Positions 1 to 32,380 of a DNA stretch of 64,000 nt are shown here, one piece after another. Each line of letters opens with the position of its first letter. The stretch's first letter is position 1. Source of the stretch: an uncultured Acidobacteriota bacterium (lineage in GTDB: Bacteria; Acidobacteriota; Blastocatellia; RBC074); the NCBI GenBank assembly GCA_963796275.1, contig CAWCKY010000007.1, positions 32,001-96,000 of the forward strand. The letters are read 5' to 3'. The notes beneath the pieces were generated by a model, which was not told where the DNA came from, made no database searches, and saw only the letters and a list, made by a program, of their open reading frames with translations. A program made the translations under genes and the position numbers.

Positions 1-1302
1 TTGCGCGCACAGCGCGGTTCCAAAGACGCTTCCGACGCGGCTCAGGCGGGATTCGCCTTTCTGCGACGCTATGCGCAGCAACACTGGTCCGAACCGCTGG
101 CCGATGATCTGCCGGTAGGGATCGAGCTGCTGCTGCCGCGATTGCTCGGCGAGGCGGCATCTCACGGGATCGATCTGCCGGCCAAGCCGTATCAGTCGCT
201 GCGAGCGCTTGGTACTCGCAAGCGACTGATAATCGCGGCAACGAAGCCGAGCGCGGGCTCGGGACCGGTGTACTCCTGGGAGGGGTGGGGATTTCAGGCC
301 GCCCCGGAAGTTATAGACGGTTCCGGCGGCGTAGGACATTGCCCCGCGGCCACTGCCGCATGGCTGGCGATGACGGCAAAACGCAATGACCTTAATGGGG
401 TTTTTAACCGAGCTGCGCGCCGGTTTTTGAAAACAGCCTCCGCAGCCTCCGGCGAGAGCGACTCCAGCTTAATGCCTGTTGTTTGGCCTATCAATCGCTT
501 TGAACAGATAGGGGGGCTCCACGCCCTCTCCCTTGCCGGCTTGGTTGACCATCCTCAGCTGCGAGACGCGGCGCGAGCCCAAATTCTCGACCTCAGCCAC
601 GCGTTGCGTCCGGACGGAATCGGCAAGAGCGATCATTTCAGCGTTAATGGCGATTGCACATTTATGGCGATCGCCACGCTGATCGCTGCTGGACATCAGG
701 TCAATAGCCGCGTGATATATCGTTTCCGGCAGAAAAATTCCTTCATCACCTATCCGATCGAGCTTCAACCCTCCTTGACTGCGACCGCTCACGCCGTGCT
801 AGCGCTGGCACGCGCTCGCGACGATGTCAGCTGCTTCGCGCGATATCTCGAAAGCAAAGAGTCGCCCGACGGCCGTTGGGTCGGCGACAAGTGGCACAAT
901 TCGTGGTTGTACACCACGGCGGAAGTGATCATTGCGTTGGCACAGGCTAACCGGACAAAGGCCCTGCCAGCCGCGGTCGCCGCGCTGCTCTGGCATCAGC
1001 GTGAGGGTGGCGGATGGGGCTGCGCCGATCGCCCGACGCTGGCGGAGACCGCATACGCAGCATTGGCGCTCCACATGCTCCGCTCGCGCGGCACTTGCAC
1101 CAAACAGGTTCACCTTGCGCTTGAGCGGGCCGCCGCGTGGCTCGCCGATAACTACGAAGCAATGTCACCGCGAAATGACATCTTCTGGATATCCAAGGAA
1201 CTCTACTGCCCCTACCGGGTCGACCGCGTGTTTATTTTGAGCGCCGTTCTCGCTCTCCATCAAGAATGCGGCGGGAGGAGTAACAATAACAATGCTGCAT
1301 AG
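1..1302 (+). CDS. Class II terpene cyclase (prenyltransferase/squalene-cyclase repeat, beta-gamma diterpene cyclase-like), 5'-truncated by window
   Basis: PVGIELLLP, GHCPAATAAW, QW-like repeats (ESPDGRW, HQREGGGW), DKWHNSWLYTT and WISKELYCPYRV are typical of bacterial class II diterpene cyclases. The DxDD position reads NGDCT (646-660). Confidence 0.85.
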   Translation: MRAQRGSKDASDAAQAGFAFLRRYAQQHWSEPLADDLPVGIELLLPRLLGEAASHGIDLPAKPYQSLRALGTRKRLIIAATKPSAGSGPVYSWEGWGFQAAPEVIDGSGGVGHCPAATAAWLAMTAKRNDLNGVFNRAARRFLKTASAASGESDSSLMPVVWPINRFEQIGGLHALSLAGLVDHPQLRDAARAQILDLSHALRPDGIGKSDHFSVNGDCTFMAIATLIAAGHQVNSRVIYRFRQKNSFITYPIELQPSLTATAHAVLALARARDDVSCFARYLESKESPDGRWVGDKWHNSWLYTTAEVIIALAQANRTKALPAAVAALLWHQREGGGWGCADRPTLAETAYAALALHMLRSRGTCTKQVHLALERAAAWLADNYEAMSPRNDIFWISKELYCPYRVDRVFILSAVLALHQECGGRSNNNNAA

Positions 1303-2104: not shown

Positions 2105-3463
2105 ATGATGGGTTTATATCTCGCAAGGTCGCGAAGGCGTGGGGGCGCAATTAGTGAAATGAGCTGTTCAGTCGAAACATCACTTTGGAACGATTTTTCA
2201 CGCATGTCATACCAGCAGCGCGCTGGCCGCATCGCCGAACTGGCGCGTCTCGACCAGGCTTCAATTGAAGCGTTGAGTGGCCGCACGGTCACGGCGGATA
2301 TCGGGTTGGCAGAAAGATGCGTGGAGAACGCCATCGGCTATTTCGCGGCGCCCCTGGGAGTCGCCGCTTATATGCTTATTGACGGACGCGACGTCGTCGT
2401 GCCGATGGCCGTCGAGGAGACATCGATCATCGCCGCGGCGTCGAGCGCCGCAAAATTCTTCTACCCCCACGGCGGCGTCACCACCAGAACCGAAGGCACC
2501 CTGGGTATCGGCCAGATCCAGATACCGAGGGCGAGAGATTCGGGTCGCATCATAGAAACTGTTATAGCCAATCACGACCTGCTGCTCGCTTGCGCCAATG
2601 AACTGGTACCAGGCTTGATCGCTCGCGGCGGCGGGGCGCAGCGCATCGAAGGGCGCGTTTTGCCTGGAATGGTAGTGGTCTATATCTATGTAGACACCTG
2701 CGACGCGATGGGCGCCAACCTGATCAATCAGATATGCGAAGGACTGAAGCCCCTCATTGAGGACTTGACCGGGGAAGAAGTCGGCGTCTGCATTCTTTCG
2801 AACCTGACTGACACGCGCATGTCGTTTGCGACTGCGCGCGCACGACAGATTGACCGGCGTCTGGTCGACGGGATCGTCAACGCCTATGAGTTCGCCGCGC
2901 AGGACCATTACCGCGCCGCGACGCACAACAAGGGAATCCTCAACGCCATCGACGCTATTTTATTGGCGACGGGCAATGACTGGAGGGCGATGGAGGCGGG
3001 CGCTCACGCTTACGCGGCCCTCGGCGGACACTACCGCCCGTTGTCGCGCTGGCGTCGTGAGGGTGACGACCTGGTCGGCGAGATCAGGCTGCCTACATCT
3101 GTTGGGATGGTAGGCGGTATGACCGGGATTCATCCGACCGCGCGAGCATGCCTGAAGATACTGGGCGCACAGACGGCTGCTGAACTGGGCCGAATCTGCG
3201 CCGCCGTCGGCTTGATACAGAACTTCGCGGCGCTACGCGCGCTGTCGACCGTCGGTATCGTCAAAGGCCATATGAATCTGCATGCGCGGAACCTGGCGGT
3301 TCTCGCCGGAGCGAATCAGGAAGAACAACCCATGTTAGTCGAGAAGCTGCGCGAGGAACTACTGCATAAAAATCGGATAACGCTGACCCAGGCGCAGGAC
3401 ATTTTGTTAGATATCCGAAACAACGCGGTAACAGGAGGCGCGCTTATGTCGCCCCGTGAGTGA
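2105..3463 (+). CDS. mvaA: Class II hydroxymethylglutaryl-CoA reductase (true start may be ATG 2159)
   Basis: ENAIG, PMAVEETSIIAA, DAMGANLIN, RAATHNKGILN, GMVGG and GHMNLH motifs. Confidence 0.95.
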   Translation: MMGLYLARSRRRGGAISEMSCSVETSLWNDFSRMSYQQRAGRIAELARLDQASIEALSGRTVTADIGLAERCVENAIGYFAAPLGVAAYMLIDGRDVVVPMAVEETSIIAAASSAAKFFYPHGGVTTRTEGTLGIGQIQIPRARDSGRIIETVIANHDLLLACANELVPGLIARGGGAQRIEGRVLPGMVVVYIYVDTCDAMGANLINQICEGLKPLIEDLTGEEVGVCILSNLTDTRMSFATARARQIDRRLVDGIVNAYEFAAQDHYRAATHNKGILNAIDAILLATGNDWRAMEAGAHAYAALGGHYRPLSRWRREGDDLVGEIRLPTSVGMVGGMTGIHPTARACLKILGAQTAAELGRICAAVGLIQNFAALRALSTVGIVKGHMNLHARNLAVLAGANQEEQPMLVEKLREELLHKNRITLTQAQDILLDIRNNAVTGGALMSPRE

Positions 3464-3560: not shown

Positions 3561-4808
3561 ATGGTCGGAATGGAAGCTTTGGCCTTTTCAGTGCCGCAAT
3601 ACTATATCAACTTAAGTGACCTGGCGGTCGCGCGGGGAATTGACCCGGACAAGTATACCGTCGGTCTTGGCCAACGCGAGATGTCCATCGCTACACCTTG
3701 CGAAGACGCTGTTACTCTGGCCGCCGGAGCGGGACAGCGGCTGCTAGCCAGCTTCGACGTCGATCCGGGGTCCATCGCCTTGCTCATTGTCGGCGCCGAA
3801 ACCGGGATTGATCATAGTAAGCCGATCGCCAGTTACGTTCATGAGTTACTCGGCTTATCCACTCTATGTCGATCTTTCGAGATCAAACATGCATGCCACG
3901 GCGGCATGGCCGGACTATTTACGGCTTCGCAGTGGACAATGTCAGGTCGCGCCGCGGGCAAGAAGGCTCTCATCATCGCCACTGATATCGCGAGATACGG
4001 AGTTGGAGCGCCTGGCGAGCCGACGCAGGGGGCCGGCGCCGTCGCGATGCTGATTTCGGACAATCCAGCGTTGCTCGAGTTCGACACGGACGCCGAAGGC
4101 TACTACTCGAAACAGGTCATGGACTTTTGGCGCCCTATCTACAGCAAAGAGGCCTTCACCGACGGCCACTATTCAATATCCTGCTACCTCGACGCCTTGC
4201 AATACTCCTACGCTGCCTATCGCCGTGATTCCGGCCGCGACGGCGACCCGCATTTTGCGGACCGCTTCGTCGCCTGCCTTTATCACGCGCCGTTCGTGAA
4301 GATGACTCAGAAGGCTCATCAGCGATTGTTGGAGACCGACGCAGGGGCGCCGTTCGCATCCGACAGCCCCGAGATGCAAAGCGCCAGAGATGACTTTGCC
4401 AGGCGAGTGGTGCCTTCGCTGGAGATCAATGCGCGCGTGGGCAACATCTACACCGGATCGCTTTTTCTGTCGCTGGTCAACTTTCTTGAAGACCAGGCCG
4501 AGGGTAACGCCGGGCGCACGATCAGTCTATTCAGTTACGGCAGCGGCTGCCAGGCCGAGTTCATCACCGCCAGAGTCGGAGAGCGGGCTGGACAGGCGAT
4601 GAAACGACAAAGTTTTCGAACGGTTCTGGACGCTCGCACGCGCCTCGACGTGCGTCGCTACGAAGAGATTCTCGAGGCGAACGGAGTGGCAGATCTCAAC
4701 GATTCGAAGGTTTGCGACCCGGAGGTCTGGGGCGTCGCGGGACCATTCGTATACGCAGGGGCGCATAACCATCAGCGGCAGTACGTCAGCCGATCTTCGA
4801 CAATTTAG
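3561..4808 (+). CDS. mvaS: Hydroxymethylglutaryl-CoA synthase
   Basis: ETGIDHSK, EIKHACHGG (catalytic Cys), GEPTQGAGAVA, DFWRP, GNIYTGSL and FSYGSG. RBS GGAGG upstream. Confidence 0.95.
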   Translation: MVGMEALAFSVPQYYINLSDLAVARGIDPDKYTVGLGQREMSIATPCEDAVTLAAGAGQRLLASFDVDPGSIALLIVGAETGIDHSKPIASYVHELLGLSTLCRSFEIKHACHGGMAGLFTASQWTMSGRAAGKKALIIATDIARYGVGAPGEPTQGAGAVAMLISDNPALLEFDTDAEGYYSKQVMDFWRPIYSKEAFTDGHYSISCYLDALQYSYAAYRRDSGRDGDPHFADRFVACLYHAPFVKMTQKAHQRLLETDAGAPFASDSPEMQSARDDFARRVVPSLEINARVGNIYTGSLFLSLVNFLEDQAEGNAGRTISLFSYGSGCQAEFITARVGERAGQAMKRQSFRTVLDARTRLDVRRYEEILEANGVADLNDSKVCDPEVWGVAGPFVYAGAHNHQRQYVSRSSTI

Positions 4809-5037: not shown

Positions 5038-6090
5038 ATGGATATCGAACAGTTCGAACAACGGAAGCAGGATCACATCGCGCACTCATTGAGCACGGTC
5101 AACCAGGCCATAGGCATGAGCGGCCTGGAATCCATCCATCTATATCACGAGGCCATCCCGGACCTCGACTTCGAAGAGATCAGCCTAGTAACGACATGTT
5201 TCGGAATGGTGTTACCCACGCCCTTTTACGTCGCGAGTATGACGGCGGGACATGCGGACGCATTGAGCATCAATTGGATGCTGGCGCAGGCATGCCAGGA
5301 GCGCGGATGGGCTATGGGAGTGGGTTCGCAGCGCCGCGAATTGGAGGCCCGATTGGACGCCCGAGCGATAGATGATTGGCAGAGTCTTCGCCGGGCGGTT
5401 CCGGGCCTCGCGCTATTCGCCAACATCGGCATAAGCCAACTGATCAAGGCAGAGGTCTCAGATATCCGTCATCTCGTCGAGTCGCTCGATGCCCAGGCTC
5501 TGTGTGTTCACCTCAACGCATTGCAGGAGGCGATCCAGCCGGAGGGCACTCCGCAGTTCAAGGGGGCCTGGCGGGCGATCGAAACTCTCTGTCGCGAGTT
5601 GGGTTGTCCCGTCATCGTCAAAGAGACCGGATGTGGTTTCCACCGTTCGACGCTGCGCCGCCTCGCTCAGATCGGTCCGGTGGCGCCTTCAGCAGTAGAT
5701 GTCAGCGGACTCGGCGGCACACACTGGGGAAGGATCGAAGGCGCGCGCGCAGGCTTCCACACGCTGCATCAGTCGGCCGCCGCGACTTTCGCCAACTGGG
5801 GAGAGGCTACCGTCGAGAGCGTGCTGGCGGCGCGATTGGAGCTGTCTCCTCAGACGGAGATATGGGCGTCGGGAGGGGTTCGGTCCGGCCTCGACGCCGC
5901 CAAGCTTATCGCACTTGGGGCTCATCGCGTCGGCTATGCGAAGCCCGCACTGGATGCGGCGCTCACCGGGCCAATCGAACTGCGCCGTTGGATGGAGTTG
6001 CAGGAGTACGAGCTGCGAGTCGCTTTGTTCTGCTCCGGCTGTGCCACTACCGCCGTTCTGCGGGACAAGACTGGCTCGTGGGAGATGTAG
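5038..6090 (+). CDS. fni: Type 2 (FMN-dependent) isopentenyl-diphosphate isomerase
   Basis: RKQDHI, SMTAG, MGVGSQR, HLNALQEAIQPEG, VIVKETGCG, DVSGLGGT and ASGGVRSGLD. Confidence 0.95.
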   Translation: MDIEQFEQRKQDHIAHSLSTVNQAIGMSGLESIHLYHEAIPDLDFEEISLVTTCFGMVLPTPFYVASMTAGHADALSINWMLAQACQERGWAMGVGSQRRELEARLDARAIDDWQSLRRAVPGLALFANIGISQLIKAEVSDIRHLVESLDAQALCVHLNALQEAIQPEGTPQFKGAWRAIETLCRELGCPVIVKETGCGFHRSTLRRLAQIGPVAPSAVDVSGLGGTHWGRIEGARAGFHTLHQSAAATFANWGEATVESVLAARLELSPQTEIWASGGVRSGLDAAKLIALGAHRVGYAKPALDAALTGPIELRRWMELQEYELRVALFCSGCATTAVLRDKTGSWEM

Positions 6091-6224
6091 GGAGATTTTA
6101 CGAGACGCAATCAGGTTATCCGAGGAGATACCAAGCGCAAAGCGCAACGGGCTCCACGCGTACCACTCGCACAACATCTGCGCCGATCGGGTTCGTCCAG
6201 CGCTTGATATGGAGATTTTATAAG

Positions 6225-7169
6225 GTGTGTAGTTTCGATATTGCCGGGAAAGTTTTTGTTTTGGGTGAGTACGCGGTCCTGGGCGGATTGCCCGCTCTGG
6301 TGGCCGGCGTCGCCCCGCGCTTCTCCGGTTCGCTGCGTGAGGCTATGGATGAAGGCCCCTACTGGCACGCGGACAGCCCTGTAGGCCGCCTACTGCGCTG
6401 GGCCCGGGAACACTGCGGGGTGAGATTCTCCTTCCATTTCGAGGACCCTTATCATAGTGGGGGCTTCGGCGCTTCGACAGCGCAGTTTGCCATTGCCTAT
6501 GCCGCTGGGGCTGTGCGGCTCGGGTTGAGTTGCGATTGGCGAACCGCATGGCAGTTCTACCGCAAATTGACGGGCGCTGATGAAACGACTCCGAGCGGCG
6601 CCGATCTCGTCGCTCAGCTGCGGGGAGGAGTAACCCTCTTCAATCCGGTTTCGCTGAGCTGCGCGGACATCTGGGACGAATTCGACTGGTCGCGGCTGCT
6701 GGTCTTTGCGCCGAATGCGCAACCTGATCGAAAGGTCGCCACACACGTTCACCTCAAAGAGTTTTCCCTGGGAAGCCAAGAGATCGATCGCACCCAGCTG
6801 TTTTCCCGTTTGGCGGACCCCTTAAAAAAAGGCCTCACAGCGATAGATCGAAAGAGCGTCTACGATCTGGGCGCGGCGATGGATTGGTACGCCGACGCGC
6901 TCGCCGAAAACGGCCTGGAGGCACGTGTCACTTTCGAGGACCGGCGGGCGCTCAGGGCGATGCCGGGCGTGTGCGGAGCGAAGGGTGCCGGCGCTATGCA
7001 AGCAGATGTTGTACTTGCGCTCATGACGCCGGACGCGGATGCAGAGCCGATTATTCGGTCGGCACGGACACGCGGGTTGAAGCTGATATGTCATGGGTTG
7101 ACGCGGCAACCCGGAATCCAACCCCTTTTGCCACAGAAACACGGAGCCACGGAGCTTACGAGTAGGTAA
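6225..7169 (+). CDS. GHMP kinase, probable phosphomevalonate kinase
   Basis: GTG start at 6225 after RBS GGAG (6211-6214), in frame with track ORF 5376..7169. Motifs GKVFVLGEYAVL, GGFGASTAQF, PSGADL, KGAGAMQAD. It is the second GHMP kinase in an MVA operon. Confidence 0.8.
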   Translation: MCSFDIAGKVFVLGEYAVLGGLPALVAGVAPRFSGSLREAMDEGPYWHADSPVGRLLRWAREHCGVRFSFHFEDPYHSGGFGASTAQFAIAYAAGAVRLGLSCDWRTAWQFYRKLTGADETTPSGADLVAQLRGGVTLFNPVSLSCADIWDEFDWSRLLVFAPNAQPDRKVATHVHLKEFSLGSQEIDRTQLFSRLADPLKKGLTAIDRKSVYDLGAAMDWYADALAENGLEARVTFEDRRALRAMPGVCGAKGAGAMQADVVLALMTPDADAEPIIRSARTRGLKLICHGLTRQPGIQPLLPQKHGATELTSR

Positions 7170-7180
7170 AGGATATTCAT

Positions 7181-8200
7181 ATGCCTCAGGGAGCGATTTT
7201 CGAGATTCCATTTCCGTCGATGATCAATCCACATCTGGCGCCGGCGCGTGCCGCCAATCTTTCCTGGGTCCGCGCCCGTGGCCTGGCGCGCAGCGAGGCC
7301 AGGATGGAGGAGTACCTGTCGTGGGACCTGCCGCAGCTGACCGCCCGGACCTATCCATATGCCGACCGCGCCGATCTGGAAATGCTGATGAACTTTTTCA
7401 GCATTTTTTTCCTTATTGATGACGAGTTCGATGAACCGCAGGGCGACCGGCGGGCGCAACTGGCCGCGGTGACCCAGGAGATGATCACCATCCCGTTTCG
7501 TCCGGCAGGAGCCCCTCCGGACATCGTCTGCCCGATCACGCTGGCATGGGTCGAAGTATGGACGGACATGCGCCGCGGGATGTCGGAAACCTGGCAGAAC
7601 CTATTTGCATCGAACTCGGCGCGTTTCCTCACCGCCAGCTTGGAAGAGGAGCGCCTTGCCGCCAGCTCGGCGGTATTGGATCTCAACTCGTACGTGGAGC
7701 TGCGCCGCCATAGTGTGGGCGTCTATCACGGATTCGATTTGGCCGAGCGGAGCCGGGGCTTCGAGGTCCCGCCTCACGCGCATTCCCACCAGCGGATGCG
7801 CGACCTTCGCGCCGCTGCGACGGACACAATCGGGTTCATGAACGATGTGCATTCTCTAGAGCGGGACGAGCGCAAGGGCAAATCCTATAACCTAGTCGCT
7901 GTACTGCGAAGGGAACTCCGCTGTTCCCGGGCGGACGCCATTGAACGGGCTGTGCGGATGGCCCGCGAGCGGCTCAAGGCGGCACTCGAATTGCAAGCGA
8001 AGAGCCCGCACATCAGCGCCGAACTGAGACTTTCCAGCAACGAGTGCGTGGCGGTGGAACGGGGTGTGGAGGGAATCCGGAACTGGATCCGCGGCTACCA
8101 CGATTGGGCCTGTCAGAGCAGAAGGTACGCGGCGTCAGGCCCGATCGAATCATCGCTGGCTCCTGTCCGGCATGAGGATGATCTACTGGCCCTGACCTGA
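7181..8200 (+). CDS. Class I terpene synthase (pentalenene synthase-like fold, probably sesquiterpene)
   Basis: DDEFDE (DDxxD), LRRHSVG pyrophosphate-sensor Arg, NDVHSLERDE (NSE) and WACQSRRY (WxxxxxRY). Confidence 0.93.
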   Translation: MPQGAIFEIPFPSMINPHLAPARAANLSWVRARGLARSEARMEEYLSWDLPQLTARTYPYADRADLEMLMNFFSIFFLIDDEFDEPQGDRRAQLAAVTQEMITIPFRPAGAPPDIVCPITLAWVEVWTDMRRGMSETWQNLFASNSARFLTASLEEERLAASSAVLDLNSYVELRRHSVGVYHGFDLAERSRGFEVPPHAHSHQRMRDLRAAATDTIGFMNDVHSLERDERKGKSYNLVAVLRRELRCSRADAIERAVRMARERLKAALELQAKSPHISAELRLSSNECVAVERGVEGIRNWIRGYHDWACQSRRYAASGPIESSLAPVRHEDDLLALT

Positions 8201-8283: not shown

Positions 8284-9387
8284 ATGCAACTAACTGTGTG
8301 CGCCCTCGCTCCATCTAACATAGCGATAGTTAAATACATGGGAAAGCAGGACGACGCGACCAACATACCTGAGAACCCGAGCCTGTCAATGACGCTGAAC
8401 AGGCTGCGCAGTTGCGTGGAGATAACTTGCGCCAACGCGGATGGCCCGGCTGAGGCGACGTGGGTGCCAGAGCCTCCGCTTCTGTGGAGCAGACAGGCGA
8501 GTCTCAAACTCGAAGTCCCGCGTCTCGATGAAGCTGGAATAGCCCGCTTTTTGCGCCACTTCGAGCGCGTGCGTCGTGCCGCGCCGGCGATACTTGCGAG
8601 ATACGGAGTACCGATTACCGCGCAGGATGGAGAGAGGTGCTCTTATCTGATTCGAAGCGGGAACACCTTTCCGTCGTCGACCGGCATCGCATCGAGCGCC
8701 GCCAGTTTCGCCGCACTGACATTGGCGACGGCGATGACGCTCATAAGCGATCAAGCAGCATTTGACGGCACCTGGGAATCGGAAACGGGTTTGCGAAGAG
8801 ATATGGCGAGCCTGTCGCGACAAGGATCAGGCAGCTCTTGCCGCTCGTTTGAAGGTCCCTGGGTCGGATGGGAGGCGGATCGCGTTTTTAAAATGAATGC
8901 CTCGACGCCGGAGCTTAGCCACTTCGTTTTGCTGGTCAGCGACGAGGCCAAGAAGATTCCTTCTTCCAGGGCCCACCAGCTCGTTAAGGAATCACCGCTA
9001 TGGACGGGGCGCGTGGAGCGCGCGAGCGCGCGATTCGAGCAGGCCTGCAGGGCACTATCTGAAGGAGACCTGACCCGCCTCGCCCGAATCGCGTGGAGAG
9101 AAGCCTGGGAGATGCACAGCTTATTCCACACTACGGCTGAGCCTTTCTCATATTGGCGCCCCCGCAGCATAGAGTTACTTCAGTGGCTCGCGCCGGCGAT
9201 CAACGGGCCGGCACCTGCCATCGTTTCGCCCCCGATCGTCTCGATGGACGCCGGTCCGAACGTGCATCTGATCGTCGAGGCGGCAGATGCTGATATGTGG
9301 CGTGAGAGATTGATTCGCCGTTACGGCGCGGGCGCTTTCCTCGAAGATGAGCCGGGCGACGGCGCCGCCCCATTCGGGCGATGTTGA
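8284..9387 (+). CDS. mvaD: Diphosphomevalonate decarboxylase
   Basis: APSNIAIVKYMGK, NPSLSMTL, GIASSAASFAAL, GSGSSCRS and DAGPNVH. Confidence 0.95.
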   Translation: MQLTVCALAPSNIAIVKYMGKQDDATNIPENPSLSMTLNRLRSCVEITCANADGPAEATWVPEPPLLWSRQASLKLEVPRLDEAGIARFLRHFERVRRAAPAILARYGVPITAQDGERCSYLIRSGNTFPSSTGIASSAASFAALTLATAMTLISDQAAFDGTWESETGLRRDMASLSRQGSGSSCRSFEGPWVGWEADRVFKMNASTPELSHFVLLVSDEAKKIPSSRAHQLVKESPLWTGRVERASARFEQACRALSEGDLTRLARIAWREAWEMHSLFHTTAEPFSYWRPRSIELLQWLAPAINGPAPAIVSPPIVSMDAGPNVHLIVEAADADMWRERLIRRYGAGAFLEDEPGDGAAPFGRC

Positions 9388-11332
9388 TGAAGCTCTATCA
9401 CCACCCAACATAACAATGTTTTCATTACCACTTATGACTGACTTGCGGCATAGACCGGGCGCCGCCAACAGACCCGTCCCGAACCCTGATGCCGATGTAA
9501 AAAGGGCGATCGGATTTCTGCGCGAGCGATGCGCCCCGAATGGATTTCCCTCTTTTGTTTCCCCAGATCCCGGCTTTTCTTCGCAGGTCGAGTCCGCCGA
9601 AGAAGTGTTCACGTCCATGCTGATTCTGCGCTCATTTGATGACTGTGGCCTGGACGCGCCAGGTGAGAAACGTCAACTTGAGAGAGTTTGTCGGTCTTTC
9701 ACTCGGCAGGGTTTCGTTCACTTTTTTGCGGACCGCGGCATGCTCGCGGCGGACGTCGACTGCACAGCGGCGGGGATCGAGCTGGCGCTCAAGCGCGGCA
9801 TATCGCTGGCTTTCGACGTCAAGCGCGTACTGGATGTCATTGCCGCGAACGTCGACGATTCCGGTGTGCTATGCGTCTATCTCGATCCCGATGAAAGTCG
9901 AAAGGATCGCGTGGACGCGGCCGTCTGCGCCAACACGCTCTACCTCTTTTATATGCTCGGCCGCGAAGCCGATCTGAAGGCTTCCGAGCAATACGTCTGG
10001 AATCAACTTACGGGGATCCGGTTCTCGGAGGGAACGCGCTATTACCCGTCCCCTGACATTTTCCTGCTGTTCCTGTCACGACTGCTCGCTGATTTTGAAC
10101 GCTCCCGAGCCCGTTTTGCAGCTGCGGTGGAATGGCGGATTCGCGAACGACTCGGCCTGCCCGGATCGAATGTCGAGCTTTCCGCACGCGTGACAGCGGC
10201 GTGGAAAGTGGGGTTACACGCGGAGCGGGAGTTGGATGAACTCGCGCGTGCCCAGAGAGTCGACGGCTCGTGGCCGGCCGCGCCCTGCTTCCGATTCGGA
10301 CGCCGGCCGGTGTATTTCGGCGGGGAGAGCCTTTCCACAGCCTGGGGCGCATGCGCCCTGATGATCGGTTCGCGGCGCCTTCCACGCACGGCGCTCGCGA
10401 GAGAAGTCGTCATGGACGGCTCCGGCGGATCGCGACTCAGCGAGCGGATCACCTATCCGTTTGGTTGTTTCGAATTGAATGCGGATCAGATTGAGCTGGT
10501 CCGAGACGAACTTGCCAGCCTGTCCGATCGCTACCAGCTCTTCGAGGGGCGGGAGGAGTGGAATCACATCCTCCTGACCTTCATCACCTATTGCTCCGCA
10601 CGCAGCCCCGAGGACGACGCCCTACGTCTGCTCTGTCATTTTCTGTATATGACGGTGTTTTTTAACGAGGCCCGCTCGCGGGGGCTGAATCGGGATTTAG
10701 CGCTCAACTACGCGGGAATTATGAGAGGCGGGCAAGCGCGCGCTTCCCATCCCGTACTCAGTGCCGCGCGAGATTTCCGTCTGCGGTTCGATCGGCTGCT
10801 CGCGGCGAAGGAGAGCGACGCCTCGGCCTTTTTCCATTACTTCGGTCTCAACATCTCCTCCTTCTTGCGAGACGCGACGGCCGACCATTCCGATCCTCGC
10901 GACCCGCGCACATCCCTGTGGGTGCGATTACACTCCATTTCCGCCCTTGCCTACTTCCAATTCTGGAAACTGCTTCTCAGGGTCGGCGCGCGCGAGGAAC
11001 TGCCTCACGCCACTGACATCTTCCGGTGTGAAATGCTGTCGGCCAGAATTCAAAGCCTCGCTAACGATATCTGTTCTATCGAAAGGGACGCGCGCGAGGA
11101 CTCTCTGAATATAGTATCCGTAGTTGCCCAGCGCGAGAACATTCCGTACAAGCTGGCGTTGAGTACGGTTCGACGATGGCACGACGACGCCGTAACGGAG
11201 TACGCCGACGCCACCCGCCGCGCGAGCAAGGTTACTCCGCCAGGCCCGGTTGCCGATTACCTGGAATTCATTGAGTCCTGCACAGCAGGGAACGTGCAGA
11301 GCATGCTTTCCCTTGCGTCCAGGTATTCATAA
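9347..11332 (+). CDS. Bifunctional terpene cyclase: N-terminal class II beta domain (HAD-TC/drimane-cyclase type) fused to C-terminal class I synthase-like alpha domain; start may be 9416 or 9434
   Basis: N-half: HFFADRGMLAADVDCTA, RVDAAVCANTLYLF, GTRYYPSPDIFL, AQRVDGSW, YFGGESLSTA. Linker MDGSGGS. C-half: ITYPF, WVRLHSISA, NDICSIERDARE (NSE), LNIVSV and terminal SRYS; the DDxxD site is degenerate (FFNEA). Confidence 0.8.
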   Translation: MSRATAPPHSGDVDEALSPPNITMFSLPLMTDLRHRPGAANRPVPNPDADVKRAIGFLRERCAPNGFPSFVSPDPGFSSQVESAEEVFTSMLILRSFDDCGLDAPGEKRQLERVCRSFTRQGFVHFFADRGMLAADVDCTAAGIELALKRGISLAFDVKRVLDVIAANVDDSGVLCVYLDPDESRKDRVDAAVCANTLYLFYMLGREADLKASEQYVWNQLTGIRFSEGTRYYPSPDIFLLFLSRLLADFERSRARFAAAVEWRIRERLGLPGSNVELSARVTAAWKVGLHAERELDELARAQRVDGSWPAAPCFRFGRRPVYFGGESLSTAWGACALMIGSRRLPRTALAREVVMDGSGGSRLSERITYPFGCFELNADQIELVRDELASLSDRYQLFEGREEWNHILLTFITYCSARSPEDDALRLLCHFLYMTVFFNEARSRGLNRDLALNYAGIMRGGQARASHPVLSAARDFRLRFDRLLAAKESDASAFFHYFGLNISSFLRDATADHSDPRDPRTSLWVRLHSISALAYFQFWKLLLRVGAREELPHATDIFRCEMLSARIQSLANDICSIERDAREDSLNIVSVVAQRENIPYKLALSTVRRWHDDAVTEYADATRRASKVTPPGPVADYLEFIESCTAGNVQSMLSLASRYS

Positions 11333-12198
11333 TGTGGGTTAAGTTTAAAACCTGTCTACCAGGAAAATGGGTCCTGGTTGGAGAACATGCTGTGATGCGC
11401 GGCGGTATGGCCATCGTCTTCCCTTTCCCGGAAGTGAGCCTCTGCCTCGACTTTGTTCCGCAACGAAGCAAAAAGCTGAAAGTTACTCCGCCGGACGCTG
11501 AGCCAGTGATACATGAGCTACTCAGAACTTATGAAAGTTGGAGGAGTGGGAATGACGGGTTTTCCTTGCCCATGGGCAGCCTGACCATTCAGAGCGATAT
11601 ACCTCAAGGCGCCGGCCTCGGCTCTTCAGCCGCTTTGTGCTCGGCTGTGGCGCGGTGGATCGCCAGCGCCACAGGTCTTCCGTTAACTGAGCTGGCTGAA
11701 CTTGCGCGCTGTTTGGAGTCCCGTTTTCACGGCGCCAGCAGTGGCATGGACATCGCGGTCGTGCTTGCCAATGCGCCGATCGTATTCGAGAAAGGCGGTC
11801 AGCCGCGAATACTGAAGCTCGGGAGAATTCCCCATTTCACTCTGCACGATACGGGGTTGCGGTCGAACACTTCCGATTGTGTCTCACGGGTAAAGACATT
11901 CATAGCCAGAAATCCGAAGAGGGCTACCGCCGTAGACCGGGCGATGGACGCTGCGTCATTCCAAGCGTTGAAAGGGCTATTGAATTACGGCCGCGGTGAA
12001 GAACAGGCCGGGTTGAAGGCGATCGCCGAAGGAATGCGAATGGCGCTTGATTGTTTTGGCGCCTCGAACTGGGACCTGATTTCCGGAGACGAAGAGCGAT
12101 TGATCCGGTCGCTGCTGAACGATGGCGCGTTGGCCGTGAAGCCGACGGGGGCAGGTGGAGGCGGTATGGCACTGGCGCTCTGGGATCGCCCAGGATGA
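11332..12198 (+). CDS. mvk: Mevalonate kinase
   Basis: PGKWVLVGEHAV, PQGAGLGSSAA, FHGASSGMD and KPTGAGGGG. Coupled to the upstream fusion gene by a TAATG overlap. Confidence 0.9.
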   Translation: MWVKFKTCLPGKWVLVGEHAVMRGGMAIVFPFPEVSLCLDFVPQRSKKLKVTPPDAEPVIHELLRTYESWRSGNDGFSLPMGSLTIQSDIPQGAGLGSSAALCSAVARWIASATGLPLTELAELARCLESRFHGASSGMDIAVVLANAPIVFEKGGQPRILKLGRIPHFTLHDTGLRSNTSDCVSRVKTFIARNPKRATAVDRAMDAASFQALKGLLNYGRGEEQAGLKAIAEGMRMALDCFGASNWDLISGDEERLIRSLLNDGALAVKPTGAGGGGMALALWDRPG

Positions 12199-14139: not shown

Positions 14140-16722
14140 ATGCGTAACACACTCTACCTTTTGCTGGCCGCAGCAATGTTTTTCTCAGCGATCTGGATGT
14201 CTTCGGTGACCGGCGCGTCGAATCAAGGCGCAGCCGGACAGCAACAGATCGAGCCGCCGACCTTGCAGGTACAACCCGTCGGCCTGCCCAACTACGATGT
14301 CCGCGAGGAGCTTCGCGACGCAGCGCCAAGCCGAGTGAATCAATTGGGCGCGGCGGTTGTCGCCACCGATACACAGGCGATGCAGAACGCCATTGAATCT
14401 TTCCGTCAGCGAATTCCTCTCGAGGCGCGTGATAATTTACGTGTGGTGATGAGCGATACGGGTCTGCCGAAAATGGTGTTCAATATTGAGGGGCCGCTCT
14501 CCGTTCCCCAATCGGACCTGCCGGATTCGATCGCGCGCGGTTTTCTCGCCGATCATTCGGCCATGTTCGGACTCGACCGGGGCCAGATCTCCGAGATGAA
14601 ATTGAAGAATGCGGATAACGACAATGGCACGACCTTTTTAAATTACGAACAAACGGTCGACGGCATTCCTGTCTTTCAAGGGGAAGTTCAAGTGGTCGTC
14701 AACGCCAACGGGCAGGTGATCTCTATCAACGAAGGGCTGGTAATTCCCGACCCCCGAATCGATATGGCTCCCAGGCTTTCCGAGAGCGAAGGCATGCAGA
14801 TGGCTTTTCTGCACGCGGGCAGAGTGGCGCCTGCATCGTTCGAGATGATGGAGGACCGGATAGCTAAAGGCGAACGAGCCGTTTATCGAAACCCGTTCGG
14901 TGAGGACCGCGAGAATATTCTCTCTGGTATGAGAATTATGCGCGTCGGGCTGCGAGCCGTACTCGCCTGGCACTCCTACGTGGATGTCGGGGCGAACGAA
15001 TGGTACGAAATCCTGGTCGATGCGAATACGGGAGCGATGCTCTATCGCCACAACCTCTACGCGGACGTCGCCCAGGGAACGGTCTTCCGGGTGAATGGGT
15101 TAGGTCAACGCACGCTCGAATCTTTCGTCGGGGATACGACGATCAACACGGCCGCCGGCTGGATGGGCACTTCGACGGTGACGACAGGCAATAACGTCGA
15201 TGCCTATTTGGACACGAATGCGGATAACCAACCGGATGCGATTACTACCACCGGTATTCAAAACGGACGCGCCTTCTCGTCCATACAGGACTTCACCTTC
15301 CCATTCACACTGGGCATTGATCCTCGGACGCAAAGAGCGGCTGTTTTGGCCAGTCTCTTCTATTTTAATAACATAATGCACGATTTTTCTTACCGGCTCG
15401 GGTTCACTGAATCGGCTGGCAATTTCCAGACGAATAACTTCGGGCGTGGTGGGACCGGCAATGATTCGGTCAGAGCCGAAGCGCAGGATGGATCGGGTAC
15501 CAACAACGCAAACTTTGGGACGCCGCCCGAAGGATCGCGCCCGCGTATGCAGATGTTTCTCTTCACGCGCGGAACGTCTGATCTGAATGATGACCGCGAC
15601 TCCACATTCGACGGCGATGTCGTATTGCACGAGTATGGTCATGGAATTTCGAATCGTCTGGTTGGCGGGCCGGCAAACACGAGCTGTTTGGGCGGAACGC
15701 AAGCGGGCGCTATGGGCGAAGGCTGGTCGGATTACTGGGCTTCCACATTCTATAATAATGGCGTTGTCGGCGAATTTGTCACCAACAATTTGACGCGCGG
15801 CATTCGCCGCGCCGCCTACACGGTTCCGGCGAACCCGGTTCACGATTCTTACGCCGACCTGGGAGTTGGAGGCTTTCAGGTCCATCGCGACGGCGAGGTC
15901 TGGGCTGCGACATTGTGGGATTTACGACAAACGCTGGGCGCCACCATCGCCGACAGGCTGGTCCTGCAAGGAATGAAGTTCACCCCCTGCAGTCCATCCT
16001 ACCTCAATGCTCGCGATGGCATCTTGATGGCTGATCAGAACATCAACGGCGGTGCGAACAGATGCACCATTTGGCGCGTCTTCGCGCGTCACGGGATGGG
16101 CGTCTCGGCCCAAGGGAATAACGGCACCACGCACGTCGCCGCAACCGATATACCGCAGGATTGCAACGGCGGTGGGGGGGCGACGACGATCTTCCTCGAC
16201 AACTTCGAGACTAACCAGGGATGGACGGCCAACCTGAATGGAACCGACACAGCGACGACAGGACAATGGGCGCTTGCTAATCCCGAGACTACAACTTCGA
16301 GCGGAACCAAGCAGCTCGGAACCACTGTCAGTGGGGTGAATGCCCTGGTTACAGGCGCCCTGGCCGGCTCCTCCGCCGGAGTCAATGACTTAGACGGCGG
16401 CGTCACAACCGTCATGTCACCGGCAATCACCTTACAAGGAGGAACCAGCTTCACGCTGACCTTCTCCTATTACCTGGCCCACGGAACCAACTCCTCGACC
16501 GCCGACTTCTTCCGCGTGCGGGTTGTGGTCGGCAGCACCGTAACCACAGTATTCCAGGAACTCGGCGGCACTGAGGACGACGATGCAGTCTGGGCCACCG
16601 GCACGGTGAACCTCAGTCAGTTCGCCGGACAGACGATCCGAATCCTGGTCGAGGCGGCGGACGCCAGCGGCGCAAGCCTCGTCGAAGCAGGCCTTGACGA
16701 CTTGAGGATAACAAGGCAGTAA
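14140..16722 (+). CDS. Secreted M36 (fungalysin) metallopeptidase with FTP propeptide and C-terminal beta-sandwich
   Basis: Signal peptide, GFTESAGNFQ, NNANFGTPPEG, HEYGHGISNRL, GAMGEGWSD and VHRDGEVW. Confidence 0.92.
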   Translation: MRNTLYLLLAAAMFFSAIWMSSVTGASNQGAAGQQQIEPPTLQVQPVGLPNYDVREELRDAAPSRVNQLGAAVVATDTQAMQNAIESFRQRIPLEARDNLRVVMSDTGLPKMVFNIEGPLSVPQSDLPDSIARGFLADHSAMFGLDRGQISEMKLKNADNDNGTTFLNYEQTVDGIPVFQGEVQVVVNANGQVISINEGLVIPDPRIDMAPRLSESEGMQMAFLHAGRVAPASFEMMEDRIAKGERAVYRNPFGEDRENILSGMRIMRVGLRAVLAWHSYVDVGANEWYEILVDANTGAMLYRHNLYADVAQGTVFRVNGLGQRTLESFVGDTTINTAAGWMGTSTVTTGNNVDAYLDTNADNQPDAITTTGIQNGRAFSSIQDFTFPFTLGIDPRTQRAAVLASLFYFNNIMHDFSYRLGFTESAGNFQTNNFGRGGTGNDSVRAEAQDGSGTNNANFGTPPEGSRPRMQMFLFTRGTSDLNDDRDSTFDGDVVLHEYGHGISNRLVGGPANTSCLGGTQAGAMGEGWSDYWASTFYNNGVVGEFVTNNLTRGIRRAAYTVPANPVHDSYADLGVGGFQVHRDGEVWAATLWDLRQTLGATIADRLVLQGMKFTPCSPSYLNARDGILMADQNINGGANRCTIWRVFARHGMGVSAQGNNGTTHVAATDIPQDCNGGGGATTIFLDNFETNQGWTANLNGTDTATTGQWALANPETTTSSGTKQLGTTVSGVNALVTGALAGSSAGVNDLDGGVTTVMSPAITLQGGTSFTLTFSYYLAHGTNSSTADFFRVRVVVGSTVTTVFQELGGTEDDDAVWATGTVNLSQFAGQTIRILVEAADASGASLVEAGLDDLRITRQ

Positions 16723-31500: not shown

Positions 31501-32380
31501 ATTGTTTAGCACTGCCAACACGAATGGTTGGCAAACCTGGATGACAATCTCAAAAGCCAATGTCTCATTGACGGCAGGCGTTCAGGTGATGAGAGTGTTT
31601 CTTGATGATGCAAACTTCAATCTGGACAAGATTACATTTTCAATTGCGGGCGGCAATGTTCCGGTTACAGGTATTACCGTATCACCAACATCTCGGTCAT
31701 TGCCGGTCGGAAGTACTGTTCAACTCGTTCCTACGGTTTCACCTGCAATCGCTACCAACAAGAGTGTGACCTATGCGTCAAATAATAATGCGGCGGCTAC
31801 CGTAAACGGTTCAGGGCTAGTGTCTGCGGTTGGCACAGGTACGGCTGTCATTACGGTTACAACCGTAGATCAAGGTAAAACAGCTACGAGCGCTATCACT
31901 GTGATTAGTACTGCGACTGCTTACAGAATCAAAAATCGCTGGCAAAACACCTACCTATATGATGCGGGCGATCGCGTAAGATATAGCTCCACCGCTGCTG
32001 GAGCTGCTTACAATTGGGTTCTTGAAGATGTAGGGAGCGGGCAGAAAGAAATTAAAAACGTCGGCACAGGTGAGTATATGCACATTGAAAACCTGGCCGG
32101 TTTTGTTCAATGCGCCGCCCGCACCGTAGGTTGGATGAGCTCCCGCTGGACGACTGAGGATGCCGGAAGCGGATTCATCAGATTAAGAAACGTGTGGCAG
32201 TCAAGTAACTATATTCACGTTGAGAACCTTGCGGGTCATGCACAGTACGGAACAATTTTTCCTGTGTGGGAGAGCGCACAATGGGTTCTTGAACCAGTTT
32301 CCGGTGGAAGTGTGGCTATGGGAAATTCTTCTCAACCAGATTCTATCCAATTTCGGCCCACGAAACAGGCGCGGGAATAA
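28547..32380 (+). CDS. Large secreted multimodular glycoside hydrolase (GH87/mycodextranase-like beta-helix with PKD, ConA-like, CBM6, Big_2 and ricin-like modules)
   Basis: Signal peptide, PYTRYEA, SEASDR, RYSIPD, RFDE, GAGIWYT, FRNNYADGIN and RNNGDD. Modules: APIANAGPDQ (PKD), WAKAGVMIR, ENFDTGGEGVAYHD/TGEWYEY (CBM6), VPVTGITVSP (Big_2), YRIKNRWQ (ricin-like). Confidence 0.82.
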   Translation: MKTITCLFLLCFFSLSVFAQSDGLPRGAYLMPYTRYEATSTSLAGGATLLGPTFDQTKVQSEASDRICASLSAANSSVSWLTTQAGQGLVLRYSIPDGQSGTLGLYVNNTFVQNINLTTKWAWQYFAKPGQGDPNLPSNTPNPNATQRMRFDEVRVFLANSIPAGASVKLQKGVDGITYMIDFIELEPIPQAVAFNPATMRSVTEFGAVPNDGQDDLSSFNSARIALQNSGRTLYIPAGTFNLGSTWNIETNISIQGAGIWYTTLYFTSTGSGGIVGNGDNIQLRDFYMNGENTTRNEYKGLTGGYGNNSVIERLWIEHFETGAWITTWNGAITNGLRVSFCRFRNNYADGINLTRGSSNCIVEQCNMRNNGDDAIATWSAFDGPQQCFNNEFRYCTAENTWRAGGIGFFGGGGHKGHHLLIKDSTENGIRINSDFPTVGSSFSSTLWIEVYETTVIGCGTNANLWHNRYGAVDIFTRLYNVQNFRLRNVDIQGSQKDAVMIYDVASTFRISNIEFINVTLNGAGLDGNINNYTPPTYDDYAGYGIYVLPETDGSMTITNTNICNTPSGQTRNDSAATFVINGTHSSICDGNTNNAPIANAGPDQNLASGTTSANLSGSATDANGDPITYSWSQIGGPTATITENSSATTSVTGLSSGNTYVFRMSASDGEGGIGTDDIQITVQSPPSNLPSPWVTGDIGAVAASGFASYNSSTATFTANGSGADVWDTADEFRYIYQPINGDVTITARVASLANTNVWAKAGVMIRASTAAGSQHAFTTVTPGNGVNFQRRATTNGISENTGGGAGAAPYWLRLQRIGNTFTSSASTNGTNWTTIGSATISMGATALVGLAVASHADGTIATATFSNVQISTQSPSTQDPFPGPGPAAIPGTIEFENFDTGGEGVAYHDNEAANEGGQGRTTEGVDTEICSEGGLNIGWTATGEWYEYTVNVATAGVYNIDVRVASMFAGGAFHIEFNGVDNTGLFSTANTNGWQTWMTISKANVSLTAGVQVMRVFLDDANFNLDKITFSIAGGNVPVTGITVSPTSRSLPVGSTVQLVPTVSPAIATNKSVTYASNNNAAATVNGSGLVSAVGTGTAVITVTTVDQGKTATSAITVISTATAYRIKNRWQNTYLYDAGDRVRYSSTAAGAAYNWVLEDVGSGQKEIKNVGTGEYMHIENLAGFVQCAARTVGWMSSRWTTEDAGSGFIRLRNVWQSSNYIHVENLAGHAQYGTIFPVWESAQWVLEPVSGGSVAMGNSSQPDSIQFRPTKQARE

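Follow-up and report, generated by a model that had tools for sequence, protein, structure and literature searches.

Can one bacterial polypeptide join a class II terpene cyclase to a class I terpene synthase without a gamma domain, and would both halves then be catalytic? The question is raised by a gene of an uncultured Acidobacteriota bacterium, located on the forward strand of contig CAWCKY010000007.1 in the stretch between positions 32,001 and 96,000, whose 64,000 nucleotides are referred to here as the window. The encoded protein (P0001) carries a beta domain of the type known from the drimane cyclases AsDMS and AstC, followed by a class I alpha domain; the coordinates of all features are given in Table 1. 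This fusion gene encodes a genuine single polypeptide, and is neither a chance open reading frame (ORF) nor an assembly chimera, since both halves match real families, five homologues are continuous and an independent contig crosses the junction without gaps.

Translation of 9347-11332(+) gave 661 residues with 0 internal stops, and the frame is a single entry in the ORF list of the window, which confirms the continuous frame described in a sequence-only reading of this DNA; every motif listed there is also present in its place. The same reading had proposed a search for full-length homologues of the same beta-alpha order, and five were found, each an unbroken fusion, with identities of 67-82% over 93-96% of the query. 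In an unrelated metagenome run (X1), a 540-base contig about 95% alike aligns over 10189-10722 and so passes through the linker with 0 gaps, and neither a stop nor a frameshift, the defects with which the sequence-only reading had reckoned at the linker, is seen in it. The true start of the protein is uncertain: the 638-residue record form (P0002) starts at Met24 (nt 9416), the closest homologue starts at the position of Met30, residues 1-47 are not conserved among the homologues, and the first 19 residues of the 638-residue model are disordered.

The opposite explanation is that two genes were joined into the long frame as an artefact of assembly or annotation or as a decaying pseudogene. It can draw on the Shine-Dalgarno-like purine run GAGAGAAG at 10399-10406, which is followed inside the linker by the ATG of Met356 (10412-10414), and on the closest relatives outside the clade, which are split genes. 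Against it stand the five independent full-length homologues, the crossing of the linker by the independent contig, the high conservation of both domains (mean pairwise identity among the six fused homologues of 76.2% for alpha vs 79.6% for beta), nine beta-alpha clusters elsewhere and the high confidence of the structural model (predicted local distance difference test, pLDDT, 91). The artefact is thus largely refuted and essentially excluded. A conserved internal start at Met356 was also rejected, and the separate translation that had been suggested from this site is not supported: the Met is kept in just two of the six fused homologues, the other four having V or L. In the homologues P0004-P0007, the linker carries a 21-residue insertion.

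The N-terminal half had been read as the stand-alone beta domain of HAD-type cyclases, and this was borne out. Over residues 47-340 it aligns with the class II domain at the C-terminus of AsDMS (phmmer, 9mhs, E 1.4e-27; 9m7d, E 6.3e-27), and the half also matches AstC (E 3.3e-19). Foldseek placed it on 9m7f/9mhs (E ~3e-16; root-mean-square deviation, rmsd, 2.2-3.5 over ~310 columns), and the newer Pfam family PF28380 is assigned to this half in the records of a large protein collection. Its motifs are HFF (125-127), D136-V-D138-C-T-A (nt 9752-9769), DAAVCANTLYLF from residue 190, GTRYY (229-233) and QRVDGSW...YFGG (303-326). The DxDC form occurs in all 23 beta rows inspected; the residue after it is T in 21 rows and S or A in the other two.

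Residues were mapped by hand from the HMMER alignment to AsDMS. In the available text of PMC12365925, D331 and D333 of AsDMS are given as the acid/base pair and Y427 as the Tyr partner, while Y373, R378, R380, R425, Y426 and R513 form a diphosphate site that needs no metal. In the window protein, Y178, K186 and R188 align with Y373, R378 and R380, and R231, Y232 and Y233 with R425, Y426 and Y427; F315 and F324, near R319, align with F509 and F518. The residues corresponding to D331, D333, Y427, Y373, R380, R425, Y426 and R513 are identical, and R378 is replaced by Lys. The beta domain is therefore likely to be a working class II cyclase that acts on a prenyl diphosphate.

The C-terminal half presents a class I fold. 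Residues 466-617 match PF19086 with 35.2 bits against a cut-off of 23.7; Foldseek paired the domain with T-muurolol synthase (9hr3, TMt 0.81) and epi-cubenol synthase (0.78); and the profile of its family aligns with 9hqi at E 1.9e-21. A search of the ESM Atlas with the alpha part confirmed the label 'terpene synthase' and nothing further, and one with the whole protein returned only leads below 0.9. The Pfam match, the structural comparison and the profile alignments agree with the earlier description of this half as class I, with NSE-type motif and terminal RY present and DDxxD absent; the fold, on which that description had been prepared to fall, was found with the TMt given above.

Upstream in this half are ITYPF (368-372) and FFNEA (438-442; nt 10658-10672). 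The Asp-rich motif DDxx(D/E) was not found, and NEARS lies in its register both by HMMER against T-muurolol synthase and by hhalign against seven canonical synthases. In the inspected rows of the alpha family, the first position of the motif is never Asp and the second is mostly Asp or Glu. The second motif, predicted to bind Mg, has the form NDxxSxxxD in 26 of the 27 alpha-bearing rows, with Cys for Ser in P0020. A 16-member alpha profile with a mean column identity of 39% has R168, N214, D215, D222, N229 and Y301 invariant, which are R527, N573, D574, D581, N588 and Y660 of P0001, and S218 and R300 nearly invariant, which are S577 and R659.

No further domain was detected. A gamma domain is absent, as the sequence-only reading had indicated: Pfam gave no match to SQHop_cyclase or to the N-terminal Terpene_synth family, and the AlphaFold2 model, Foldseek and the hidden Markov models (HMMs) show two domains. 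No HAD phosphatase domain was found in Pfam or NCBIfam, just ~31-47 unconserved residues preceding the beta domain, and the plant-type families PF01397 and PF03936 gave no match at E <= 0.01. The AlphaFold2 model, built from a 38-row alignment, has a mean pLDDT of 91 and a predicted TM-score (pTM) of 0.57, so the fusion is modelled as two confident domains whose mutual orientation is not confident. A rigid packing like that of plant beta-alpha enzymes was rejected on account of this pTM and of the poor Foldseek comparison with miltiradiene synthase 7wat (TMq 0.33, rmsd 14.3). Prediction of the two domains as a complex of separate chains gave 0.00 against a mark of 0.32, a run made without controls that is evidence neither way.

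The pairing of the two domains is not confined to this gene. An exhaustive HMMER search returned 639 matches at E <= 0.001, and the 150 listed representatives of these were scored with our own beta and alpha HMMs. Beta only was found in 107 of them; alpha only in 17; beta preceded by an N-terminal extension of more than 150 residues, HAD-type and others, in 11; beta-alpha in nine; alpha-beta in five; and beta with a C-terminal extension in one, although some rows counted as beta only may derive from fused genes present as fragments. A Pfam check of 10 proteins confirmed the class I domain in five beta-alpha and three alpha-beta proteins. Extra N-terminal regions of ~350-400 residues are present in P0026 (1029 residues), P0043 (717), P0119 (720) and P0058 (678); P0043 and P0058 have no Pfam match.

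A FastTree phylogeny of the beta domain was built from 125 rows, leaving out P0001 (duplicate of P0002), P0010 (unrelated) and rows with fewer than 220 beta-HMM positions. It needs at least five changes for the beta-alpha label, at least three of them forced by well-supported (starred) branches, and five changes for the alpha-beta label, again with at least three so forced. The beta/alpha fusion thus appears to have been invented several times and in both orders. The window clade, of six fused proteins, nests with the stand-alone beta proteins P0011 and P0008 (support 98*) and not among the beta proteins with N-terminal extensions. Among the matches listed, its nearest split relatives are P0011 (beta only, 59%) and P0012 (alpha only, 54%), which are probably on the same contigs, because each was seen on contigs of 41135 and 7541 bases.

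The window fusion is then, as far as these sequence comparisons go, a separate joining of a split beta/alpha pair. The sequence-only reading had offered two origins. The recent fusion, which it gave as an alternative, is in line with the split pair on like contigs. Replacement of HAD in situ by an alpha domain was rejected, given the grouping with stand-alone beta proteins; moreover, HAD lies N-terminal of beta and the alpha domain C-terminal.

The same pairing is found between separate genes. Scanning with the alpha HMM of 38 TC-beta loci from named genomes, which were found with the beta alignment A5 (two of them, L029 and L030, are one metagenome-assembled genome, MAG, with identical coordinates), showed a class I gene in 22. 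It is fused to beta in one locus (L006, a UBP8 MAG); directly downstream on the same strand in 11; upstream in four, all of Haliangium MAGs and two of them from the same MAG; convergent in four; and 3.5 kb away in two. In the Streptomyces/Kitasatospora loci L015, L021, L022, L031 and L039, the neighbour of TC-beta scores nearer to the canonical synthase of the window than to the alpha family. The neighbour synthase has IDDEFD in L015, L022 and L031; L021 and L039 gave no aligned residues. These five actinomycete loci seem to represent a distinct sesquiterpene system in which class II and class I are encoded by two genes.

Several myxobacterial neighbours of TC-beta also keep the DD. It follows that the pairing of a class II beta with a class I alpha is general, and that loss of the Asp-rich motif characterises the subfamily that includes the window domain. 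A profile scan of genome contigs with the 5-member alpha alignment A4 gave 177 pattern matches, none of which was confirmed, and a metagenome scan with P0001 gave two loci, L041 (on a 1310-base contig) and L042 (a weak 51-residue match).

Some of these loci have signalling genes nearby. In two myxobacterial MAG loci (L005, 4812-13410; L004, 4946-13394), a stand-alone TC-beta and an alpha gene lie within a chemosensory cluster with the order CheR, beta, CheA-receiver hybrid, CheW, alpha and methyl-accepting chemotaxis protein, L004 having an extra CheW right after beta. In L006, a histidine kinase follows the fused gene.

Comparison with known systems shows where the protein stands. With AsDMS (PDB 9mhs, 9m7d-f) and the fungal AstC (PDB 22ty/22tz) it shares a gamma-less class II beta domain, the DxD(T/C)T motif, the Tyr partner and the residues for metal-free binding of diphosphate; it differs in its DxDCT against their DxDTT and in its partner, which is C-terminal and of class I fold. 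It is not a member of the HAD-TC group, because the HAD domain is absent. With the stand-alone beta terpene synthase of Sorangium cellulosum and with MstE (merosterolic acid synthase) it shares a single beta domain without gamma, but here the domain is covalently tied to a class I domain. The available text on the Sorangium enzyme reports that it cyclises FPP (farnesyl diphosphate) with a DxDVT motif, and the partner discussed there is not a class I synthase but a distinct HAD protein (bioRxiv 10.1101/2025.09.20.677545).

Like the bifunctional gamma-beta-alpha diterpene cyclase-synthases of bacteria, fungi and plants, which include CseDCS, ChjDCS, and abietadiene and miltiradiene synthases, the window protein has class II followed by class I in one chain, with beta before alpha. 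The bacterial bifunctional enzymes described in the available text of PMC11469919 are gamma-beta-alpha tridomain proteins, which agrees with the earlier remark that known class I/II cyclases include a gamma domain. The window protein does not belong with them because gamma, DxDD (it has DVDCT) and DDxxD are absent.

The closest solved structure to its alpha domain is T-muurolol synthase of Roseiflexus castenholzii (PDB 9hqi/9hr3), with the same fold, an N-terminal YPF, the Arg sensor and NDxxSxxx(E/D); the differences are NEARS for DDxxD, Asp and not Glu as third ligand of the second motif, and the fusion to a class II domain. In plant copalyl diphosphate synthases, an active class II site and a gamma domain go with a vestigial alpha domain that lacks DDxxD and has lost the second motif as well. 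In contrast, the alpha domain of the window keeps a strongly conserved NSE-type motif, Arg sensor and RY. By its sequence, then, the window protein would act like a tandem enzyme that passes from class II to class I.

How the two halves would cooperate may be sketched as follows. Judging by the conserved residues, and as in AsDMS, a linear prenyl diphosphate would be bound by its diphosphate head in the beta domain with no metal involved. Its terminal double bond would be protonated by D138, which Y233 holds, and the prenyl diphosphate released would be cyclic and of the drimane type. FPP would be the default substrate, since AsDMS, AstC and the Sorangium enzyme all use it, and GGPP (geranylgeranyl diphosphate) may also serve. 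In a second and weaker step, the product would cross the flexible linker, of ~20-40 residues, to the tethered alpha domain. This domain may grip the diphosphate by the Arg sensor, the N-S-D motif with one Mg and the RY pair, and remove it by ionisation or hydrolysis. The precursor would be supplied by the surrounding mevalonate genes, and the fusion would be of recent origin, from an adjacent pair of beta and alpha genes.

We favour this reading, in which a prenyl diphosphate is first cyclised in beta and the cyclic product is then processed in alpha through a reduced metal site, and consider it about evenly balanced between right and wrong. The metal site must be non-canonical, because both Asp-rich ligand positions are lost (N440 and S444). 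A catalytic alpha is preferred because its diphosphate site is conserved, the two domains are conserved almost equally and the pairing has been fixed repeatedly and independently. Several observations weigh against it. Two profile methods place non-acidic residues at positions 1 and 5, where the metal ligands usually stand; position 1 is Ile in the five closest homologues (IEARS or IESRW); and the fused relative P0036 has no acidic residue at all in the region of the motif. A full three-metal ionisation site thus looks unlikely. In addition, drim-7-en-11-yl diphosphate, which is homoallylic, makes a poor substrate for class I enzymes, the product being allylic only if it is drim-8-ene or monocyclic; the inter-domain packing of the model is not confident; and the canonical class I synthase 1.1 kb upstream could be the real second enzyme.

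A second explanation is a non-catalytic alpha, in which case the protein would in effect be a class II cyclase whose second half, like the vestigial alpha domain of the plant enzymes, only binds diphosphate, or is structural or regulatory, and another enzyme, either the canonical synthase 7181-8200 or a phosphatase, would finish the product. Several observations fit this explanation: positions 1 and 5 are N and S here, while the closest homologues have I followed by S or W; one relative is free of acids; the model has no fixed domain interface; and the canonical synthase shares the operon. The five Streptomyces/Kitasatospora loci also fit, since the neighbour there resembles a canonical DDxxD-type synthase more than the alpha family. 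However, alpha is conserved nearly as well as beta, in a family of 39% identity the residues of its diphosphate site vary little or not at all, and a passive appendage does not readily account for the repeated fixation of the pairing, fused in either order or as coupled genes; we regard a non-catalytic alpha as possible, with a clearly smaller chance than the catalytic one. The order of the reactions could also be reversed, alpha making a neutral olefin or alcohol from a prenyl diphosphate and beta re-protonating this product to cyclise it a second time. Diphosphate-free substrates can be accepted by class II beta domains, and alpha-beta fusions also exist, but the diphosphate-binding residues of AsDMS are kept in beta (Y178, K186, R188, R231, Y232, R319) and alpha is without the motif on which the efficient ionisation of linear diphosphates depends, so that this order seems improbable.

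The fusion gene is located within a tight same-strand mevalonate/terpene operon, and it is translationally coupled within this cluster. The FMN_dh-family protein is read as type 2 isopentenyl diphosphate isomerase from its Pfam match and context. The next ORF has no Pfam or NCBIfam match, and its sole match in the PDB is a mevalonate kinase at E 0.098; it occupies the place expected for phosphomevalonate kinase, a call that comes from its sequence reading and position. The canonical synthase has as its best NCBIfam match NF041564, 7-epi-alpha-eudesmol synthase, with 378 bits, below the cut-off of 680. On the soil-metagenome contig of L041, which has 75% identity in the alpha half, the fusion gene is likewise followed directly by a mevalonate kinase gene (87% identity over 85 residues).

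Table 1. Coordinates in the window of the fusion gene, its domains and motifs, and the genes of the surrounding operon (HMG-CoA, 3-hydroxy-3-methylglutaryl coenzyme A)
Feature	Position	Strand	Evidence or remark
HMG-CoA reductase	2105-3463	+	
HMG-CoA synthase	3561-4808	+	
FMN_dh-family protein	5038-6090	+	Pfam
ORF	~6246-7169	+	inside longer frame 5376-7169
Canonical class I sesquiterpene synthase	7181..8200	+	PF19086, E 1e-38
Diphosphomevalonate decarboxylase	8284..9387	+	41-nt overlap with the 9347 start, or ends 28 nt before Met24
Fusion gene, whole ORF, 661 aa + stop (P0001)	9347..11332	+	alternative starts Met24 at 9416 (638-aa form P0002) and Met30 at 9434
Gamma-less class II beta domain, AsDMS/AstC type, residues ~32-345	9440..10381	+	PDB 9mhs match; Foldseek; HMM envelope 32-345
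Putative general-acid motif D136-V-D138-C-T	9752..9766	+	aligns with AsDMS D331-L-D333-T-T
Putative diphosphate/catalytic residues, Y178 to Y233	9878..10045	+	alignment to AsDMS
R319, aligned with AsDMS diphosphate ligand R513	10301..10303	+	alignment
Flexible linker, residues ~346-365	10382..10441	+	pLDDT <50 at model residues 324-339
GSGGS in linker, residues 358-362	10418-10432	+	
Class I terpene synthase alpha domain, residues ~362-661	10430..11329	+	PF19086; Foldseek; family profile
N440-E-A-R-S444 in DDxxD register	10664..10678	+	HMMER profile alignment and hhalign, same register
R527, diphosphate-sensor position	10925..10927	+	invariant in alpha profile; 27/27 inspected rows
N573-D-I-C-S577-I-E-R-D581, NSE/DTE-type motif	11063..11089	+	Asp in place of usual Glu
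R659-Y660, C-terminal RY pair	11321..11326	+	
Mevalonate kinase	11332..12198	+	ATG overlaps the fusion TAA stop by one base (TAATG)

The cluster is probably accessory and acquired, as inferred for this genome. IspH of the methylerythritol phosphate pathway is present in the genome; HMG-CoA reductase was found in one of the 36 same-family genomes searched; and P0001 had no match in 60 relatives at the level of genus (two), family (34) or class (24). The G+C content of the terpene cluster is 0.55-0.60. No RNA run was found among the nine sequencing runs with matches (shares 0.05-0.14).

Upstream of the mevalonate genes, the stretch 8256-13302 of L040 (G000:C7:28256-33302), which reaches window positions 1-1302, encodes an extracytoplasmic function sigma factor and another class I synthase. 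It also holds genes for a polyprenyl synthase, whose best but weak match is a GGPP synthase, and for a beta-gamma class II cyclase akin to bacterial diterpene cyclases (6vpt, E 4.8e-32). Together with the operon of the window, these cyclases therefore make up an island with three separate cyclase systems. Elsewhere in the window, 14140-16722 (+) encodes an M36 fungalysin-type metallopeptidase of 860 residues with a choice-of-anchor J C-terminal domain, and the composition shifts between 56001 and 64000, with G+C down to 0.43-0.53 and AT skew up to 0.15-0.19 at 58-62 kb.

The sequence-only reading had allowed that this architecture might already be characterised. No description of a TC-beta/class I fusion was found in the full-text literature searched, which lacks most subscription journals; supplementary figures of the drimenol-synthase papers may list such homologues. 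The available text of PMC12365925, PMC13244436, PMC13684600, PMC11469919, PMC12453296, bioRxiv 10.1101/2025.09.20.677545 and bioRxiv 10.1101/2024.01.29.577750 likewise contains no description of it. Among class II architectures, a late-2026 preprint names in its available part only beta, beta-gamma and alpha-beta-gamma (PMC13684600), and a survey of 1,374 characterised enzymes assigns its beta domain type, in the portion available, to plants only (bioRxiv 10.1101/2024.01.29.577750). In the source records seen, the relatives are named 'hypothetical protein' or carry generic terpene synthase names.

The classification into alpha, beta and gamma domains guides the genome mining of terpene synthases and the prediction of their functions. 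A bacterial protein with a gamma-less and apparently active class II domain joined to a class I domain would add an entry to this scheme. It would also mark the beta domain of AsDMS type as a portable module that takes more than one kind of diphosphate-processing partner, a HAD phosphatase in one case and a class I fold here, and would offer a naturally occurring case in which to test the abilities of a class I fold devoid of the Asp-rich motif. Mining rules that require DDxxD, or that seek gamma-beta, would overlook such genes. More tentatively, since we think it rather less probable than a catalytic alpha in the window protein itself, TC-beta and the alpha family may constitute an unrecognised and widespread two-part terpene cyclase system of bacteria, fused in either order or encoded by coupled genes. 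In such a system, the gamma-less class II domain would pass a cyclic prenyl diphosphate on to alpha, its dedicated class I-like partner without Asp-rich motif, which would activate or remove the diphosphate at a reduced metal site (NSD motif, Arg sensor, RY). If so, this would be a new way of performing class I chemistry, and would probably give access to sesquiterpene skeletons beyond those made by either class alone.

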